NCBI GenBank assembly: GCA_964373695.1
Contig: CAYJVT010000011.1
Span: 8,046-21,934, forward strand
Source: an uncultured archaeon
GTDB taxonomy: Archaea > Aenigmatarchaeota > Aenigmatarchaeia > GW2011-AR5
Direction of reading: 5' to 3'
DNA: 13,889 nucleotides
Positions 382 to 7,675 of this stretch are shown one piece after another. The stretch's first letter is position 1. Each line of letters opens with the position of its first letter. The position numbers and the translations under genes were made by a program. Below the pieces are notes generated by a model. The model saw nothing but the letters and a program-made list of their open reading frames with translations, was not told the origin of the DNA and made no database searches.

Positions 382-429
382 TGGCCTCTTCCAAGGCCAC
401 GAGCCGAGGCCAAGGCACTCGGCGAATCC
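382..429 (+). ncRNA. tracrRNA-like two-hairpin element, copy A1 (class alpha)
   Basis: GGCC-TCTTCCAA-GGCC, then GCCGAG-N9-CTCGGC, then GAATCC. Near-identical to 3758-3806. Loop TTCCA is complementary to TGGAA at the repeat 3' end. Confidence 0.7.
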
Positions 430-454
430 TATTACGTCTGCCAATATCCTTTCA

Positions 455-510
455 TGGCGTCTTCCAGCGCCAAGAGTTGAGTCTTCGGAACTCAACAAAT
501 CCCACACCAA
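455..510 (+). ncRNA. tracrRNA-like two-hairpin element, copy A2 (class beta)
   Basis: GGCG-TCTTCCAG-CGCC, then GTTGAG-N9-CTCAAC, then AAATCCCACACCAA. The final ATCCCACACCAA equals repeat nt 11-22. Stem sequences differ from A1 but pairing is preserved. Confidence 0.7.
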
Positions 511-525
511 GTAGTTTGAACAAAG

Positions 526-570
526 AGGCTGTTTCATTCAGCCTGATGGCGTCTCTTCGGTGACGCCGAC
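526..570 (+). other. Two-hairpin element B with similar architecture but a different loop
   Basis: AGGCTG-TTTCATT-CAGCCT (526-544) followed by GGCGTC-N8-GACGCC (548-567), in the 5' region of effector 1. Confidence 0.4.
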
Positions 571-604
571 GAAATAAATGAACGACCAACCACGGAGGAA
601 ATCC

Positions 605-2209
605 ATGAAGCCCGATTATCCGATCCTCAGCATCAAGATTCTTGTCAGCAGGATGGGAAGCGATTCAGACGACTTCTCCTTCCCCGGAAGAAAATCCCTT
701 TCCTTCATTCCGCGAGAAAGATTCGTCTCTTGTCTTTCCCGCATGCAGGAAGAAGTGTCAAGGCACTACAACCGCTGCATGAGGGAGATGTTCATTACAT
801 TCGCCAGTTCCAACAGGCTCCGGCAGTCAGACGTAACCCGGTGCACGAAGCCCGTGACGCCGGTTCTGGGGGCGTACATACGCAATGGCCTCGCCTCGAA
901 ACTGGCTGCAACTTTCCGCAGGCGGGAGATGGCCTTCGCTTCGGCTAGGCTGCCTTCGGCTAACAGCAGCCTTCCCGTCCCGTTCTCCGCGGGATTCTCC
1001 CTAGGCATGACTGACAGGGAAGAGTTTGCAGTCTGTCTGCCACTTCCCTCATCCTTCCTAGGCATGGAAGGGAAGAATATCCAGGTTCCCCTCATCGTCT
1101 CTACGAAGTCCCGCGAGAAGCGAGTCATGAGACAAAGGAGGAAAATGGGCAGCGACTGGCACGGGAAGTCCACGGACGAAGTGGTGATGGGGCTGAAGAG
1201 CGGAAGATACATGTCTTCCTACTGCGAGGTGTTCTGCCGCGACGGCAGGATATGGATAAGCCTCTCCGTGAAGTTGCGGAAGGCCCCATGCCCAGAATGC
1301 AGCAGCGATATGTGGACCGAGACGAAAACGACCAGATGCCTCTCCTGCCACTCGACTGGGAAGGTTGTTAAGGAAGACGAGAAGGGTAGGAAGAGGACGA
1401 TCTGCGAGGGCTGCGGCGAAAGCCATTTCGAGCCTCTCTATCGTTGCGGCAGTTGCGGCTTCAAGATTTACAAGGGCGGCCTTGACGAACTGAGCATTGT
1501 AGGTGATGGTCTCGATCCGGCCGTGACGGGCGGTATCAACTTCGGCGTCGGGAAGTTCGCCTGCTGCGCGACCAACTCGGGAGATGAACACTTCATCATC
1601 GGCGGGTCGGAGATTGTCAACCTCAACACGGAGTTTGCCGGCCGCCGCTGGGAGATGAGCAGGCAGAGCCGTGTCAACAGGGGGGGACGGGGCATTAAAT
1701 ACAAGTTCAGGCCCTACGAATCCATGTCCCGGCGCATGGACGAGAAGCGCAGGACCGTCATAAGGCAGATGGCTGCCGAGATAGTCCTCTTCTTCAGCGA
1801 GCAGCGGGCTTCCACCGTCTTCATGAACAGCATGAGAGGCGTCAAGGACTCCCCTGTTCCCTGGAATTTCTTCCAGATGTTCCAGATAAGGAACGTTCCT
1901 TATGGGGAGTTTATCGCTGCCATCAAGCACGCCCTCGCCAAGGAAGGCATCGCCAGCCTGTTCATTGACGAGAAGCAGTCGGAGGGCGAGAAGGTTGATT
2001 TCTTCGACTTCACTTCCCAGCTCTGCCACAGATGCGGCCATTGGAACAGGCACTTCACCTTCCAGTGGCGCCAGGAGAACGGCTTCCCGCCGTTCAGATG
2101 CAGCAGTTGCGGCAGAGAGTTCGACCCTGATTTCAATGCGGCCAAGCGCGCCTCCATGGGAGCAGATCACATCGCAGCTGTGGAGGGAATCGTGGCTCGC
2201 GACGAGTAA
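605..2209 (+). CDS. Cas12f/Cas14-like (TnpB-family) RNA-guided effector 1, predicted nuclease-dead, 534 aa
   Basis: GGAGG RBS at 594-598 before ATG 605. C-terminal RuvC-like layout: GGINFGVGKFACC (RuvC-I, Asn at the Asp position), STVFMNSM (RuvC-II, Asn at the Glu position), TSQLCHRCGH...CSSCG zinc finger, and DPDFNAA (RuvC-III). Extra 4xCxxC insertion before RuvC-I. Flanked by CRISPR arrays. Confidence 0.85.
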   Translation: MKPDYPILSIKILVSRMGSDSDDFSFPGRKSLSFIPRERFVSCLSRMQEEVSRHYNRCMREMFITFASSNRLRQSDVTRCTKPVTPVLGAYIRNGLASKLAATFRRREMAFASARLPSANSSLPVPFSAGFSLGMTDREEFAVCLPLPSSFLGMEGKNIQVPLIVSTKSREKRVMRQRRKMGSDWHGKSTDEVVMGLKSGRYMSSYCEVFCRDGRIWISLSVKLRKAPCPECSSDMWTETKTTRCLSCHSTGKVVKEDEKGRKRTICEGCGESHFEPLYRCGSCGFKIYKGGLDELSIVGDGLDPAVTGGINFGVGKFACCATNSGDEHFIIGGSEIVNLNTEFAGRRWEMSRQSRVNRGGRGIKYKFRPYESMSRRMDEKRRTVIRQMAAEIVLFFSEQRASTVFMNSMRGVKDSPVPWNFFQMFQIRNVPYGEFIAAIKHALAKEGIASLFIDEKQSEGEKVDFFDFTSQLCHRCGHWNRHFTFQWRQENGFPPFRCSSCGREFDPDFNAAKRASMGADHIAAVEGIVARDE

Positions 2210-2281
2210 ACTGCCACTTCCGCAGGCAAAAGCTGTGCTTTCGGGCATGGCAATTCTATGCGGAACAAACAAGGAGATCCT

Positions 2282-3652
2282 ATGCAAATTCTTCCGAGAT
2301 ACTTCAGGTTCCGTGTCACGGGCCCCGAAGGAATTTTCAGGGCCCTGTCGAAACTCAAGTCCGTGACCGTCAACGCCTTCAACACAGGCGTTGTCAGGCG
2401 TTATCATGGCGAGACACCCTTCCTTCCGGAAGAGCTGTTCGGCAATCCCATGCTGCTCTCGGGCATGAAATCCCAGCTCGCGGAGATGTACGACGATGAT
2501 GCCATCCAGAACGACCGCATCTCGCTTCCGACCCAGGCCTACGACAGGATGAGAGTGAGGTTCGAGTCCAAGCACGGCCTCATGCTAGAAAGGCGAGGCG
2601 ACAGGTACGCGCTCCTGCTCGTCTTCCCTGCCTTTTCGATCATGGAAGGCGACAAGGGAAAACTGGCCGAATTCTCCGGAGAATCTGCCGAACTCTCTGT
2701 AGAGATAAGCGGTTCTGTGAAAAGGCGAGACGGAAAATTCCAACCTGCTTCTCATCTCACAGAAGTCGCCTCGCGCATCATGGATGGCACCTACATCAGC
2801 TGCCGGTGCGAATTCTTCCACCATAGGTATCAGGGGTGGGTACTGAATCTGGTAACGTACAATCAGGGCATCGACTGCCTGGAGTGCGGAGCGGACTCTT
2901 GGGAAGAGGCTGGCGAAGTTGTCGTGTGCATGTCATGCGGCCATTCTTACAGTCAGGAAGTATTCTCCCGGATGATGGCGGAGAACCTGAAGCCTCTGCC
3001 CGATGTCAGCTGCGGCATCATGATAGGGCTTTCGACTCCTCTCATCTTCTCTTCCACCGGCCACGAGAGGCGCAGTGTATTCCCAGGAGAGGCTGAGCAC
3101 ATGAGCGGCGTCATCAGGGCCCGCGTCATGTTGCGCCACAAGGGTAACTGGAGCAGCTGGGAAGAAAGGTGGGAAAAAGCGGAAGCTGGTTACAGAGAAC
3201 GCGCCAGGAGAATCGCGGACGGCTGGCGGCGGGTAGTGTATGAACAGGGCGTGCGCAAGACGCGCGCCTCCTGCATCTGGATGCTGAGACATCCGGGAGA
3301 GTGGAATTACTTCACTTACAACCGGCTGCACTTCTTCGAGCCGTCCGATGTCATGGGAGAGGTAAGCAGTTGGCTGTCTTCCCCTCAACGGAAGCACGTG
3401 ATGGAAGTGAGGTTCATGGACGAGGAGTTTACGGAAAGGCATGAAAAACCTTTCGACCCCAGCATGCTGTTCCGTCTCTGCCACTCCTGCGGCAGGCTGT
3501 ATCCCTCTCTTCCCCATCCGCTGCCCAGAGACAAGCGCGGCCGGTTCCCTCTATTCGAATGCGTCTGCGGAACCAAGACGACGCTCGACGCCAATGCCGC
3601 CAAGAACCTTGCCGGCGGCGAGGAGACGATGGGAAAGATCGCTTCGCTGTAG
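2282..3652 (+). CDS. Cas12f/Cas14-like (TnpB-family) RNA-guided effector 2, predicted nuclease-dead, 456 aa
   Basis: AGGAG RBS at 2272-2276 before ATG 2282. N-terminal RYFRFRV strand, CGIMIGLSTPLIFS (RuvC-I, Met at the Asp position), SCIWMLRH (RuvC-II region without Glu), CHSCG...CVCG zinc finger, and LDANAAKNLA (RuvC-III, canonical DxNAAxNI/L). Extra CLECG...CMSCG ribbon. Confidence 0.85.
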   Translation: MQILPRYFRFRVTGPEGIFRALSKLKSVTVNAFNTGVVRRYHGETPFLPEELFGNPMLLSGMKSQLAEMYDDDAIQNDRISLPTQAYDRMRVRFESKHGLMLERRGDRYALLLVFPAFSIMEGDKGKLAEFSGESAELSVEISGSVKRRDGKFQPASHLTEVASRIMDGTYISCRCEFFHHRYQGWVLNLVTYNQGIDCLECGADSWEEAGEVVVCMSCGHSYSQEVFSRMMAENLKPLPDVSCGIMIGLSTPLIFSSTGHERRSVFPGEAEHMSGVIRARVMLRHKGNWSSWEERWEKAEAGYRERARRIADGWRRVVYEQGVRKTRASCIWMLRHPGEWNYFTYNRLHFFEPSDVMGEVSSWLSSPQRKHVMEVRFMDEEFTERHEKPFDPSMLFRLCHSCGRLYPSLPHPLPRDKRGRFPLFECVCGTKTTLDANAAKNLAGGEETMGKIASL

Positions 3653-3660
3653 AAAAACGG

Positions 3661-3691
3661 AAGGGCGGGCTTGAAAGGGGGCCCGCCCTTT
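3661..3691 (+). terminator. Strong GC hairpin 8 nt after the effector 2 stop: terminator, processing signal or 5' stem of the downstream RNA
   Basis: AAGGGCGGGC (3661-3670) pairs perfectly with GCCCGCCCTT (3681-3690). The U tail is only short, so termination may be leaky. Confidence 0.5.
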
Positions 3692-3693
3692 CA

Positions 3694-3742
3694 TGGCCTC
3701 TTCCAGGGCCATAAGTCGAGCTTACGAGACTCGACAAATCCC
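3694..3742 (+). ncRNA. tracrRNA-like two-hairpin element, copy A3 (class beta)
   Basis: GGCC-TCTTCCAG-GGCC, then GTCGAG-N9-CTCGAC, then AAATCCC. Preceded by CCTTTCA, exactly as A2 is. Confidence 0.72.
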
Positions 3743-3757
3743 TGCTTAATTGTACTC

Positions 3758-3806
3758 TGGCCTCTTCCAGGGCCACGAGCCGAGGCCAAGGCACTCGGCA
3801 AATCTC
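3758..3806 (+). ncRNA. tracrRNA-like two-hairpin element, copy A4 (class alpha)
   Basis: GGCC-TCTTCCAG-GGCC, then GCCGAG-N9-CTCGGC, then AAATCTC. The tail ATCTC is complementary to the GAGAT repeat variant of the adjacent array. Confidence 0.72.
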
Positions 3807-3871
3807 TGACCTACTGACAATGTTCTGCAGGAAATCGAGTGAAATGGTCGAAAATCGTCGAATCCACGGCT
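3807..3871 (+). promoter_or_regulatory. Putative leader of CRISPR array 2
   Basis: Non-coding stretch before the first repeat. It ends CACGGCT, and array 1 is preceded by CATGGCT. Confidence 0.45.
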
Positions 3872-4202
3872 CTTGCACGACATCTCACACCAATCTGAGA
3901 TATGGAACCCGAGCATAAGGAGCCTCAAAGCGCACACCAAGACGCACTTGCACGACATCTCACACCAATCTGAGATATGGAACCGTCGTTCCCACTATCA
4001 GTCCCCACGCACTCAAGCACTTGCACGACATCTCACACCAATCTGAGATATGGAACCGAATCCACGTGCAGACTTGCCATGACCCTCACTAACTTGCACG
4101 ACATCTCACACCAATCTGAGATATGGAACAGACATATTCAATTCGTCTGCTCGACGACCCCGCTACTTGCACGACATCCCACACCAATCTGGGATATGGA
4201 AC
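3872..4202 (+). CRISPR. CRISPR array 2: 5 repeats of 37 bp and 4 spacers (38, 36, 36, 36 bp)
   Basis: Repeats at 3872, 3947, 4020 and 4093 are CTTGCACGACATCTCACACCAATCTGAGATATGGAAC. The repeat at 4166 is the ATCCC/GGGAT variant. All spacers are unique. Orientation is inferred from the GGAAC 3' end, typical of type V-F repeats. Confidence 0.97.
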
Positions 4203-4315
4203 AAGCTTGGCCTCTTAGAGGCTCGTAATTCTCTAAAGGCTGAACTCCGGTAACCGAGAAGCAATCAAGAACGCCTTCCCATGGCGTTCTCCCCTTCCTG
4301 CATAAGGAGAAGAAC

Positions 4316-4474
4316 ATGCGGAAAGCCGTTCCATTCATCATTGCAGTTCTCGTCCCCGTCGGCTGCATCATCGCGATGCAGAACGGCATCCACATCAACG
4401 GCCAGGACGGCCTCTTCTGCTTGTCAGCGTTCCTCCTATGGAAGCTTGTCAGCATGAAAAAGGTAAGAGAATGA
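4316..4474 (+). CDS. Small hypothetical membrane protein, 52 aa (MRKAVPFIIAVLVPVGCIIAM...)
   Basis: AAGGAG RBS at 4304-4309, two hydrophobic segments, and an ATGA stop/start overlap with the next gene. Confidence 0.65.
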   Translation: MRKAVPFIIAVLVPVGCIIAMQNGIHINGQDGLFCLSAFLLWKLVSMKKVRE

Positions 4475-5007
4475 GCATGCAGAACCCATTCAGCACGCCC
4501 GAGCTGGTTCAGGCAGCGAGGAAGGAGGCCGATACGCTGGTGGACGAGTTCCTGCAGAACCCGGAAGACCCGGAGGTCGTGAACGACATCCTGCACTGTG
4601 GGGACGCCGAGATGTATTCGAAGTCCCTGTCGCTGCAGATGCTTGCCATGGGTGGAGGGTGTACAGAACATGAGGAGTTAAGTGCGGCCGAGCTGGAGAT
4701 TGCAGCAACCCGTCTGCAGGCGATGCTTCATACAGGAACGTTTCTGATGGAGCGGCTCGGGAGAGAGAAATTTCCCGAGGCGGCAAATATGAAGGACATC
4801 GTCAGAGCGTCCCATTTCATTGTTTGGAAGGCCCGTGACGATGTCGTTGAGATGCTCCATATGTCGGAGCAAGAGCCGGAGGAAGAAGTCGTCGGGACGG
4901 AAACGAACGAGGATGGGCCATCGGAGACATCGCTGACACCTCGGGCTGTTCTACTGTTTCTCATCCTGTTCGCCTGCATCGTCATCCTCATCAGGACATG
5001 CGGCTAG
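4471..5007 (+). CDS. Hypothetical helical protein with an acidic linker and C-terminal membrane anchor, 178 aa
   Basis: ATGA overlap start at 4471. C-terminal AVLLFLILFACIVILI transmembrane segment. Confidence 0.75.
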   Translation: MSMQNPFSTPELVQAARKEADTLVDEFLQNPEDPEVVNDILHCGDAEMYSKSLSLQMLAMGGGCTEHEELSAAELEIAATRLQAMLHTGTFLMERLGREKFPEAANMKDIVRASHFIVWKARDDVVEMLHMSEQEPEEEVVGTETNEDGPSETSLTPRAVLLFLILFACIVILIRTCG

Positions 5008-5713: not shown

Positions 5714-5965
5714 ATGAACGCATCATTCGCTTCGCTCGTTACCCTCGACGCTCTCTTCGTCATGTTCTGCGGCCAGCAGCTCGTCAAGCCGGAAGTAAAC
5801 ATGAAGGTGAGGGACGACGACGGCGAGCGGCTTGTGAAGGCGCAGCTTCGGGTCATCGTGCCCTGCGAGATGAAGATGCCCGCGGACAAGTGGATTCTCG
5901 TGATGGAAGTTGTTGAGGACCCGGCCGGCAAACTCGTCGGCATAATGCTGAAAGGGAGGACGTGA
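5714..5965 (+). CDS. Hypothetical protein, 83 aa
   Basis: GAGGAGG RBS at 5701-5707 favours ATG 5714 over the upstream GTG. GC3-rich codons. Confidence 0.7.
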   Translation: MNASFASLVTLDALFVMFCGQQLVKPEVNMKVRDDDGERLVKAQLRVIVPCEMKMPADKWILVMEVVEDPAGKLVGIMLKGRT

Positions 5966-6067
5966 GAGGAAGGAGAGCGCATCAACACGAGAGGAAAGTA
6001 GTTTGTTCATGAAGCACTGCCAGAGCAAGAAACCTGTAAGGAGGAAGAAGTCAGGAGACGTAGCAAT

Positions 6068-6322
6068 ATGGAAAGCATAGAGAGCTGGTGGCGGGTTTTC
6101 AGATACTTGCAGCAACGGCGACCCGGCAGGCCGGATATCGGATGCCCGACAAACAGGCTGATGACGTGTCTGATAACGGGCCGCGTCGGGAAAAAAGCCA
6201 AGGACAGGCTGAAGGCACATATCTTGGTGTGCGAGTCATGCCTGTTCTTGGTGGTGAAGGTCGCCATTTCACGATCCCAATGGGACAAAACTTCCGAAGA
6301 AGAGAAAGCACATGTCAGATGA
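6068..6322 (+). CDS. Stand-alone zf-HC2/ZAS (zinc-binding anti-sigma) domain protein, 84 aa
   Basis: C-x24-H-x3-C-x2-C motif (GCPTNRLMTCLITGRVGKKAKDRLKAHILVCESC). AGGAG upstream. No transmembrane or sensor domain. Confidence 0.65.
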   Translation: MESIESWWRVFRYLQQRRPGRPDIGCPTNRLMTCLITGRVGKKAKDRLKAHILVCESCLFLVVKVAISRSQWDKTSEEEKAHVR

Positions 6323-7022
6323 GAAGGACAGGAGCTTCGCGAGAGGCATCGCGCACCACTTCAACAATGCCCTTCATGGCATCTTGGGGAATCTTCAGCT
6401 TGTCATGAAGCACGAGCTTCCCGAAGAGGCCGCGGAGTCAGTCAGGGTCGCTGATAAATCGGCCACGAGACTTGCCGCTCTTGTCAGGCAGATGCTCGAC
6501 TTCATGAAAGCCGGGGACATCGCGCCGAGAGAGTTCCCCATATCGGGTGTCGGCAGGCTCATGGAAGACGAGTTCAAGAGCTTGGCCGGCCGTATCCAAC
6601 TCATCATCGACCTCCCGGCCGTCGTATTCACAGGAGACGCCGACAAGATCGTACTCATGCTGCGCCTGCTTGTCCAGCGCTCGGTGGAATCGCTGGAAGG
6701 CAGGGAAAACGGTCGGATAGTAGTGAGCGCGTTTCCAACAAGAAAGGAAGTGTCCGGGAAACGCAGGGATTTCCTCGTCTTCAGCGTCACGGACAACGGC
6801 CCGGCCATTCACGAGAACATGCTGGGTCACGTCTTCGAGCCGTTCTTCAACCCGACGGAACCGAACATACCAGGCGACCTGAAACTCGCCACTGTCAGCG
6901 CGATAGCGGCAGCGCACGGAGGATGGGCCGAATGCAATTCGGGCAATGCGGGGGCCATGTTCTCGGTGTACCTGCCGGCGGCAAAGCAAGAACCGGCTAC
7001 ATCGGAGAATCACATCGGCTGA
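6312..7022 (+). CDS. Sensor-less histidine-kinase-like protein (HisKA + HATPase_c), catalytically degenerate, 236 aa
   Basis: H-box GIAHHFNNAL, D-box DNGPAI, F-box FEPFF and terminal AHGG are recognisable. N-box asparagines and the G2 box GxGLG are missing (LMLRLLVQRS; PGDLKLA). Confidence 0.85.
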   Translation: MSDEKDRSFARGIAHHFNNALHGILGNLQLVMKHELPEEAAESVRVADKSATRLAALVRQMLDFMKAGDIAPREFPISGVGRLMEDEFKSLAGRIQLIIDLPAVVFTGDADKIVLMLRLLVQRSVESLEGRENGRIVVSAFPTRKEVSGKRRDFLVFSVTDNGPAIHENMLGHVFEPFFNPTEPNIPGDLKLATVSAIAAAHGGWAECNSGNAGAMFSVYLPAAKQEPATSENHIG

Positions 7023-7096
7023 AAGGACACCGGCACTAAGAACGAAAAACGAAGTGATTGCAGTAAACGCAGTTCACATTGACGGAGGGAATTGAA

Positions 7097-7675
7097 GTGA
7101 AAGCAGCAAGAACAATATTCTGCATCGTCATCGCCGCCCTGCTCTGCGCTGTTTGGGTTTCGCATCTCCACAAGAACTGGATGGTTGGCCTTGTCGGCGG
7201 CGCTGGAGCCGGCTTCCTGGTGGACTTTTTCGCTTTTGTATTGCCGGAATCCAGGAACGACAGGAAGAGGTTCCGCAAGGTCTTCGGCTTCTATCCCAAT
7301 CCTGGCGGTGATGCAGTTACGAGAGAAGCCGAGCTCAGGATCATCGGGCACAAAAGGGCAGTTCTCATCGAAGAGCTGGCCCGTGTGATGAGGATAATCG
7401 AACAGCTCGAGGCGAACTTCCGGATAACAAATTCGAATCGCGGGGAAATAATCGGAAGCCACACAAGGAAGTTGACGACTCAGCGAGAAGCGGCTTTTGC
7501 TATCCACCGGCAAATGGAGGAGATCGAGTGCCTGGCAATCAGGTTCGGGTACTGGGCCGCCCCTGAACCGAAGGTAGATGCGGTTGAGGCGCCGGCTCTG
7601 GTCACAGGCTCTAACGGCGACATCCCGAAGCCTGAGCCCGCCACAACTGTTTCACAACAGCCTCGGGTAGCCTGA
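7097..7675 (+). CDS. Hypothetical membrane protein with two N-terminal hydrophobic segments and a coiled-coil-like cytoplasmic part
   Basis: GGAGGG RBS at 7084-7089 favours GTG 7097. IFCIVIAALLCAVWV and LVGGAGAGFLVDFFAFVL hydrophobic stretches. Confidence 0.72.
   Translation: MKAARTIFCIVIAALLCAVWVSHLHKNWMVGLVGGAGAGFLVDFFAFVLPESRNDRKRFRKVFGFYPNPGGDAVTREAELRIIGHKRAVLIEELARVMRIIEQLEANFRITNSNRGEIIGSHTRKLTTQREAAFAIHRQMEEIECLAIRFGYWAAPEPKVDAVEAPALVTGSNGDIPKPEPATTVSQQPRVA

Follow-up and report, generated by a model that had tools for sequence, protein, structure and literature searches.

A core of guide, pseudoknot and stem is common to the omegaRNA and to all Cas12 guides described in the literature. 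The pseudoknot of Cas12f guide RNAs is termed repeat:anti-repeat 1 (R:AR-1) and stem 5 is termed repeat:anti-repeat 2 (R:AR-2), and in the omegaRNA the 3ʹ strand of the pseudoknot lies right where the guide starts (PMC10097598). The published Cas14a1 single guide RNA (sgRNA) reads GGGCUG-CUUGCAU-CAGCC-UAAU-GUCGAG-(22 nucleotides, nt)-CUCGAAAC-AAAUUCAUUU, continues with GAAUGAAGGAAUGCAAC and the guide, and has a repeat part ending in GGAAUGCAAC. Nuclease-dead Cas12f proteins with CRISPR arrays and host-directed guides have been found in bacteria (PMC13472631), and repressors derived from TnpB are also known (TldR, bioRxiv 10.1101/2023.11.30.569447). Here, we analyzed a stretch of 13,889 nt (the window; GenBank assembly GCA_964373695.1, contig CAYJVT010000011.1, positions 8,046 to 21,934 of the forward strand) from an uncultured archaeon of the Aenigmatarchaeota. 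The left 4.3 kb of the window carries, in this order on the + strand, CRISPR array 1, units u1, u2 and u5, gene A, unit u6, gene B, a GC-rich hairpin, units u3 and u4, and CRISPR array 2, the units being short two-hairpin elements.

Judging from the sequences and their predicted folds, we consider it probable that each of the six units is a paralogous copy of one element, the pseudoknot core of a trans-activating CRISPR RNA (tracrRNA) of the Cas14a/Cas12f1 type. Such an RNA would be of a known kind, though unusual in being multiplied and reduced in size. What is new is the arrangement: the core is present six times, in cis as well as in trans forms, the trans anti-repeats are very short, the two paralogous proteins are dead, and the host is an archaeon.

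Two-hairpin units and their relation to Cas12f tracrRNAs

A preliminary description of this DNA had reported four copies of a two-hairpin element, starting at positions 382, 455, 3694 and 3758. All four were recovered on the + strand as cores of about 49 nt (u1, 382–430; u2, 455–503; u3, 3694–3742; u4, 3758–3806), and two diverged copies were added, giving a total of six. Each of u1–u4 folded into hairpin 1 with 6 bp and a 6-nt loop and hairpin 2 with 6 bp and a 9-nt loop, with z values of −3.5 to −4.2 compared to shuffled sequences; for u1, hairpin 1 spans 382–399 (loop CUUCCA) and hairpin 2 spans 403–423, followed by the tail GAAUCC. The cores of u1 and u4 were 96% identical, and those of u2 and u3 were 70–74% identical to u1. 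The compensatory stem changes that had been noticed earlier held up on a MAFFT alignment of u1–u4, in which all stem cells paired (48/48) and three pairs changed on both sides, one in hairpin 1 (CG/GC) and two in hairpin 2 (CG/UA). Only one of 500 shuffles matched this covariation score, and pairing fell to 21–44% in slid registers. The hairpin 1 loop CUUCCA was unchanged across the four units. Three of them had U.G pairs in hairpin 1, which would become A.C mismatches on the opposite strand, indicating that the + strand is the RNA strand. The spacing between single units was 15–25 nt.

The order of elements in the units was then set beside known tracrRNAs. The layout that the preliminary description had given for the Un1Cas12f1 (Un1) tracrRNA, a UUGCA-loop hairpin, a GUCGAG...CUCGA stem and an AAAUUC anti-repeat, is correct according to the published Cas14a1 sgRNA. 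In a genome of the same class (G089, locus L024), the DNA between cas12f and the array reads GGGCAG-CTTGCAT-CTGCC-TAACA-TCGAG-(21 nt)-CTCGA-AATACAAATTCAG, with a repeat ending in AAATGCAAC, and in genome G214 it reads GGGCGC-CCGTTGCTA-GCGCCC-CCAA-CTTTCC-GCTTCGGC-AGGAAAG, followed by a long anti-repeat, with a repeat ending in GGATGCAAC. Unit u3 reads UGGCC-UCUUCCAG-GGCCA-UAA-GUCGAG-(9 nt)-CUCGAC-AAAUCCC, which has the element order of Un1 and G089 and many letters in common with them, including the same letters as Un1 in the GUCGAG/CUCGAC stem. Upon local alignment to the Un1 core, with 2000 shuffles as the reference, u5 and u2 reached p < 0.0005 and u3 reached p 0.0065. The earlier interpretation as a minimal Cas12f tracrRNA core was largely supported as to the kind of RNA, given the kinship of gene A with Cas14a1, the architecture of G089 and the similarity of u2, u3 and u5. 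Because a full anti-repeat is present in u4 only, the word minimal describes the core that is repeated; the mature RNA need not be minimal.

Two covariance models, one built from the four units (R1) and one from Un1 and G089 only (R2), pointed to the two additional units; a third was built from all six units (R3). When R1 was run without filters, its fifth-best match fell exactly in the 72-nt spacer between genes A and B, at 2211–2260 (E 0.017), which is u6. The best window match of R2 was at 526–580, which is u5, followed by u3 and u2, so that three of its five best matches were u5, u3 and u2 in full register; these matches were counted as a pointer only, since their scores were below significance and other loci gave a similar background. 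Unit u5 (526–583) has hairpin 1 at 526–544, with the GGCUG/CAGCC stem of Un1 and the loop UUUCAUU, and hairpin 2 at 548–567 with a UUCG cap, followed by a 9-nt linker and AAUGAAC. Unit u6 (2211–2266) is degenerate, with a hairpin 1 of 4 bp at 2212–2228 (loop ACUUCCGCA) and a UUCG-capped hairpin 2 at 2232–2251. On a MAFFT alignment of all six units, which was not fitted to the structure, 93% of the stem cells paired, 7 of 12 pairs changed on both sides, and none of 500 shuffles reached the covariation score. The unpaired cells resulted from a one-column register shift in hairpin 1 of u6.

The distribution of the units bears on whether they act as RNA or as DNA. They are hairpin-rich, repeated and intergenic, and u3 follows a GC-rich hairpin behind gene B, as might be seen with DNA-level or generic elements such as repetitive extragenic palindromic (REP)-like repeats, terminators, transposon ends or recombination sites. 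However, the six copies lie in one locus and on one strand, with none elsewhere in the host genome or in 69 genomes of the order. An 18-nt hairpin-1 pattern occurred four times in the 1.02-Mb host genome, always in the locus, and R3 gave six matches in that genome, all at the locus, and, at a threshold of E 0.01, none in the 69 further genomes of the order. The exact unit pattern was found at nine loci in metagenome contigs, all of them chance matches in coding sequence with no second hairpin, and had no match in viral contigs; Rfam gave no match across the whole window at E up to 1. Further, the G.U pairs are strand-specific, the loops are complementary to repeat ends, no T-runs follow the hairpins and no tnpA is present. 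Confinement of the copies to a single locus and strand led us to reject a REP-like or terminator identity, and we regard DNA-level elements of any of these kinds as scarcely credible.

Loop partners, tails and anti-repeats

The CRISPR repeat of the locus has 37 nt, CTTGCACGAC-ATCYCA-CACCAATC-TGRGAT-ATGGAAC, and contains an internal 6-bp hairpin in two compensating versions. Array 2 (3872–4202) has five repeats, all ending in AUAUGGAAC, of which four carry the AUCUCA/UGAGAU version and the last carries AUCCCA/UGGGAU. Array 1 (201–380) is decayed, with repeats at 201–237 and 275–311 (the second with a 1-nt insertion), a 9-nt repeat end at 330–338 and a 5ʹ half-repeat at 359–380. As the preliminary description had proposed, the invariant loop UUCCA of u1–u4 is complementary to UGGAA at the repeat end, and this was true of all seven repeats (positions −6 to −2); UUGCA:UGCAA of Un1 and G089 has an identical register. 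A UUCCA:UGGAA pseudoknot is thus predicted from complementarity and covariation.

Units u5 and u6 appear to carry their partners in cis. The u5 loop UUCAUU (533–538) is a perfect 6-nt complement of AAUGAA (577–582), which lies 9 nt after hairpin 2, and the u6 loop UUCCGCA (2218–2224) is a perfect 7-nt complement of UGCGGAA (2259–2265), which is followed by C and lies within UGCGGAAC, 7 nt after hairpin 2. Both cis partners end in GAAC, as the CRISPR repeat does. The chance of a cis complement at that offset was about 0.002 for u5 (6-mer, simulated); for u6, simulation of a 5-mer gave 0.03, and our own estimate for the 7-mer is about 0.001. Among the six units, only u5 and u6 close the pseudoknot in cis immediately 5ʹ of the would-be guide. 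Loop and partner therefore occur in four forms, UUGCA:UGCAA (Un1 and G089), UUCCA:UGGAA (u1–u4 and the repeats), UUCAUU:AAUGAA (u5) and UUCCGCA:UGCGGAA (u6). Within this one locus, loop and partner have changed together in three ways, and no other internal evidence supports the pseudoknot model as strongly. By sequence, u5 and u6 look like cis scaffolds of the omegaRNA or single-guide type ahead of genes A and B.

The position of u5 and u6 also allows a different view of them. They lie in the 5ʹ leaders of genes A and B, respectively, directly upstream of the ribosome-binding sites, and the would-be guide position overlaps those sites. Within the 1.02-Mb genome, the sequence after u5, u6 or u2 had no second match of at least 14 nt beyond chance. 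These features would suit cis-acting leader or operator structures for autogenous translation control, or decoys, in which case the units, above all u5 and u6, would not be partners of guides at all. Against this, u1–u4 lie outside leaders and their loop matches the end of the CRISPR repeat instead of a cis partner, and the layout equals the canonical tracrRNA position in G089. As an account of the units, leader control seems highly improbable; it may be true of u5 and u6 in addition to, not instead of, their being tracrRNA-type cores.

The second contact of u1–u4 with the repeat would be made by their tails. The preliminary description had matched the tails with GGAU or AGAU of the repeat, and this was confirmed with finer detail: AAAUCCC of u2 and u3 matches GGGAU, AAAUCUC of u4 matches GAGAU, and GAAUCC of u1, pairing through AAUCC, matches GGAU only. 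The tail letter tracks the repeat variant, with AUCUC in u4 beside GAGAU repeats (four of five in array 2) and AUCC(C) in the other units with GGGAU. In u4 (3758–3832 in full), the tail continues at 3801–3832 as a co-linear complement of repeat nt 1–30, with 23 bp in three blocks and a duplex energy of −19.8 kcal/mol, compared to −21.7 kcal/mol for the anti-repeat duplex of the G089 control. A duplex scan of the whole window revealed no second anti-repeat on the + strand. Unit u4 lies 106 nt after the stop codon of gene B and 66 nt before the array, and the G089 core lies 98 nt after the stop codon of its gene. A repeat-long anti-repeat is thus found in u4 only, while that of u1–u3 has 4–7 nt.

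Considering that the sole repeat-long anti-repeat is in u4, one may ask whether u4 alone is the working tracrRNA and the other copies are functionless by-products of duplication or recombination in a decaying locus. Several features speak in favor of this. Unit u1 copies u4 at 96% identity and loses the homology of its tail where u2 starts, array 1 is visibly decayed by truncated repeats and an insertion, u2 continues into a degenerate part of the repeat, and hairpin 1 of u6 has only 4 bp. However, u2, u3, u5 and u6 have diverged by 26–50% and have kept both helices through two-sided changes, the loop is invariant in u1–u4, and the loops of u5 and u6 have changed together with their cis partners. 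The maintenance of helices, loops and partners despite such divergence is not expected of neutral decay, and we therefore judge it unlikely that u4 is the only functional copy.

The sequence around u1 and u2 may bear traces of how units and repeats came to lie together. The 5ʹ half-repeat abuts u1, and the homology of the u1 tail to u4 stops where u2 starts. Unit u2, taken as a whole (455–521), continues beyond its core into a degenerate copy of repeat nt 11–37, in which AUCCCACACCAA is identical to repeat nt 11–22, followed by GUAGUUUGAAC and running to a degenerate ...UUUGAAC. It seems that a repeat was interrupted by the scaffold units at u1–u2 or recombined with them, and the unit–repeat junctions suggest either recombination between scaffold and repeat or common descent. 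The stretch containing u1 and u2 (359–521) is flanked by the 5ʹ half-repeat (nt 1–20, ending in ATTCCACACC) and the degenerate 3ʹ part (nt 11–37, starting with ATCCCACACC). The unit starts at 382, 455 and 526 follow a period of 71–74 nt, which is that of the CRISPR array. The segments after repeat 2 of array 1, at 312–358 (TCAAGGGGGGAATAGAAT and ATATGGAAC, then CATCTTGCCAAGGGGAGATA), have CAAGGGG..GA.TA in common and look like a degenerate, duplicated repeat end, not true short spacers. GAATATAT, at 324–331, is the sole TATA-like stretch upstream of u1.

RuvC-defective proteins and a spacer matching the host chromosome

Gene A (605–2209, + strand) encodes a Cas14a/Cas12f1-type protein of 534 amino acids (aa), which matched the Cas12f1/Cas14a.1 structures (PDB 7l48/7c7l) with an E value of 4e−29. 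Compared with Un1, its residues at the positions of D326 and E422 are both N, and D510 is kept, so that two of the three acidic RuvC residues are gone. A multiple alignment that included four Cas14-type proteins from the same class gave the same picture. Gene B (2282–3652, + strand; 456 aa) is a diverged paralog of gene A, with 23% identity (E 5e−10). Its RuvC-I D is replaced by M and the region of the RuvC-II E is deleted; the third aspartate is kept in both A and B. Together with the Cas12f match of gene A, these defects indicate a locus of the type V-F-like kind with two nuclease-defective effectors. Genes A and B, like the two arrays, are flanked by the units, and all of these elements lie on the + strand.

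Relatives of the two proteins are few. An exhaustive search of 1.84 billion representatives returned a single relative of gene B, P0002, with 40% identity, which is located on an 8.1-kb Logan contig of SRR22388346 with no A-like neighbor and with 955 nt free of genes on its upstream side. For gene A, word-index searches returned no relatives, the GTDB phylum search gave distant Cas14/TnpB-like matches only, and the search for related loci returned only G089. In a tblastn search against phages, gene A had TnpB-like matches only and gene B had none.

Spacer 1 of array 2 (3909–3946, + strand) matches the host chromosome over 38/38 nt, at G000:C3:33740–33777 (L057:5741–5778). The protospacer lies inside a small C2H2-like open reading frame (ORF) adjoining an RFC-like AAA+ gene, with the genes of ribosomal proteins L13 and S9 and of RNase P p30 within 12 kb around it, and the GC content of this contig (C3) and of the contig holding the window (C11) equals that of the rest of the genome. 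The 5ʹ flank of the protospacer on the spacer-sense strand is GTTT. As Cas12f1 uses T-rich flanks, this flank at the sole protospacer found supports the strand assignment. Four other spacers, searched with 24-nt seeds, matched nothing exactly among viral contigs and nothing in the host genome. The match of spacer 1 suggests gene regulation and, with both effectors RuvC-defective, looks like natural CRISPR interference acting on a host gene. RNA-guided DNA binding is likelier than cleavage, because both proteins lack RuvC carboxylates and the spacer matches a host gene.

The host genome has 1.02 Mb at 91% completeness, and from this small size we take the host to be DPANN-like. Identical DNA is present in ERR3478686 and ERR4904391. 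Its 16S rRNA scored 505 bits with the archaeal model versus 293 bits with the bacterial one. The match of the 16S rRNA gene (G000:C12:16799–22150) to the archaeal model is broken into three pieces across about 5 kb, which probably reflects large insertions. L021 (G000:C11:883–2892), situated about 5 kb upstream of the locus, encodes a HerA/DUF87 ATPase in which a TrwB-like domain and the F-93 winged helix are matched weakly, and this ATPase hints that the region may be an integrated mobile element. A cas1-cas2-cas4 module was found on another contig (G000:C13:1–3153, L061), with no array assembled beside it. Behind the module comes an ORF without a Pfam match, which is cut short by the contig end and has at least 421 aa; the GC content of this DNA is only about 33%. 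The module may belong to a second CRISPR system or may be the adaptation module that feeds the C11 arrays.

Proposed mechanism and comparison with described systems

We propose the following mechanism. The whole locus would be transcribed on the + strand, from array 1 through array 2. Each core would consist of hairpin 1, whose loop pairs with the last repeat nucleotides just 5ʹ of the guide, hairpin 2 and a short anti-repeat. Units u1–u4 would dock in trans on repeat transcripts at two places, through UUCCA–UGGAA and through the tail (AAAUCYC–GRGAU), and u4 would add the repeat-long duplex. Such docking would rebuild the guide–pseudoknot–stem scaffold bound by proteins of the Cas12f/TnpB family. 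Units u5 and u6 would supply the 3ʹ strand of the pseudoknot in cis, from the leaders of genes A and B. The output would be RNA-guided DNA binding, and hence gene regulation, rather than cleavage. The functional RNAs may be longer than single units. A composite RNA of about 170 nt (3665–3832), made of the GC-rich hairpin, u3, u4 and the tail, would have the usual length of a tracrRNA and is as plausible as separate 50-nt RNAs, because the GC-rich hairpin and u3 occupy the place of canonical stems 1 and 2. The GC-rich hairpin (3665–3690, + strand), recognized from its sequence directly 3ʹ of gene B and directly 5ʹ of u3, may be the 5ʹ stem of this composite or a structure at a transcript end.

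A number of observations weigh against the tracrRNA assignment. The 5ʹ stems 1 and 2 of canonical Cas12f tracrRNAs, which have a total length of about 140–200 nt, are absent from single units, and the trans tail duplex of u1–u3 has just 4–7 bp, in competition with the internal hairpin of the repeat. The energy of the u4 anti-repeat is unexceptional, being equalled by 2.6% of 38-nt windows on the + strand of the window (p about 0.01–0.03), and chance duplexes of −28 kcal/mol occur elsewhere in the window; the value of this anti-repeat is in its position and register, not in its energy. By sequence alone, similarity to the Un1 core fell short of significance in u1, u4 and u6. The covariation of the units themselves comes from copies within one locus, not from a comparison between species. 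R1 and R3 do not detect the tracrRNA cores of G089, G214 and G216, and R2 scores the units at 5.8–11.2 bits, which is below significance and within the background of other loci. The comparison of covariance models with Cas12f tracrRNAs, which had been suggested earlier as a check, thus gave sub-threshold cross-matches only. As R2 misses G214 too, the models are too sequence-specific for a test of the family, and MAFFT could not bring canonical cores and units into one alignment, the loop having 22 nt in the former and 9 nt in the latter. Finally, transcription, processing, the pairing of proteins with units and the regulatory output are inferred.

Cis scaffolds (u5 and u6), trans scaffolds (u1–u4) and repeats that retain a stem-5 hairpin of their own and have letters in common with the tail of the units stand side by side in one operon. 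A more far-reaching proposal, which we put forward tentatively and consider rather doubtful, is that the locus is a living intermediate in the splitting of an omegaRNA-like single guide into tracrRNA and CRISPR repeat. The dead paralogs would then use the modules as a multi-scaffold regulatory system that silences a host gene, with u5 and u6 feeding back on the translation of A and B.

Cas12f guide RNAs are long, and engineers are actively seeking shorter ones. Six diverged cores of about 50 nt with three joint changes of loop and partner amount to a natural mutagenesis series, which points to a conserved minimum of the Cas14a-type scaffold that consists of the pseudoknot hairpin and one stem. 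The coexistence of cis and trans forms beside repeats with their own anti-repeat hairpin bears on the origin of tracrRNA and CRISPR RNA from omegaRNA. The RuvC defects of both paralogs, together with the perfect match of a spacer to the host's own genome beside a T-rich flank, point to possible natural CRISPR interference in a small archaeon; to our knowledge, RNA-guided gene regulation of such a kind has until now been described chiefly in bacteria and phages.

Among described RNAs, the units are most readily compared with the Un1Cas12f1 tracrRNA (type V-F1). They share with it a GGCYG-type stem, a CUUxCA loop, a UAA linker, the GUCGAG/CUCGA stem and CAAAU before the anti-repeat, as well as the UUCG cap in u2, u5 and u6 and a loop complementary to the repeat pentamer at −6 to −2. 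Like it, they lie beside a Cas14a-type gene and a 37-nt repeat with ends of the CTTGCA...GAAC type. They differ in that there are six copies instead of one, the hairpin 2 loop has 6–9 nt instead of 22 nt, three of the four trans units have an anti-repeat of 4–7 nt, and the repeat has its own internal hairpin; the effector here is without the equivalents of D326 and E422.

Canonical Cas14-type loci from the same class, those of G089 (L024), G214 (L027) and G216 (L025), have cas12f, tracrRNA and array in this order on one strand and a loop complementary to the repeat end, as here. Unlike the present locus, they have one core each, long anti-repeats and intact RuvC motifs. G089 and G216 further have an ORF of about 330 aa upstream of cas12f, where cas1 would sit. 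On the minus strand of L027 (G214:C4), a locus from the same order as the host, two large ORFs of 557 and 527 aa (2965–4548 and 5714–7387) lie on either side of the tracrRNA and array.

With the omegaRNA of TnpB, u5 and u6 have in common that the 3ʹ strand of the pseudoknot is carried in cis at the would-be guide start; unlike omegaRNAs and the single guides of nuclease-dead Cas12f (dCas12f), no target was found for the would-be guide of u5 or u6 in the 1.02-Mb genome. The RuvC-defective proteins resemble those of the dCas12f–sigmaE systems (PMC13472631) and of TldR (bioRxiv 10.1101/2023.11.30.569447), and one spacer here matches a host gene, as with some CRISPR-linked dCas12f. Unlike in the dCas12f–sigmaE and TldR systems, no sigma factor or helix-turn-helix gene is adjacent, and CRISPR arrays and trans, tracrRNA-type scaffolds are kept beside the cis ones. 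Those systems are hosted by Bacteroidota and an enterobacterial phage, whereas the host here is a small archaeon.

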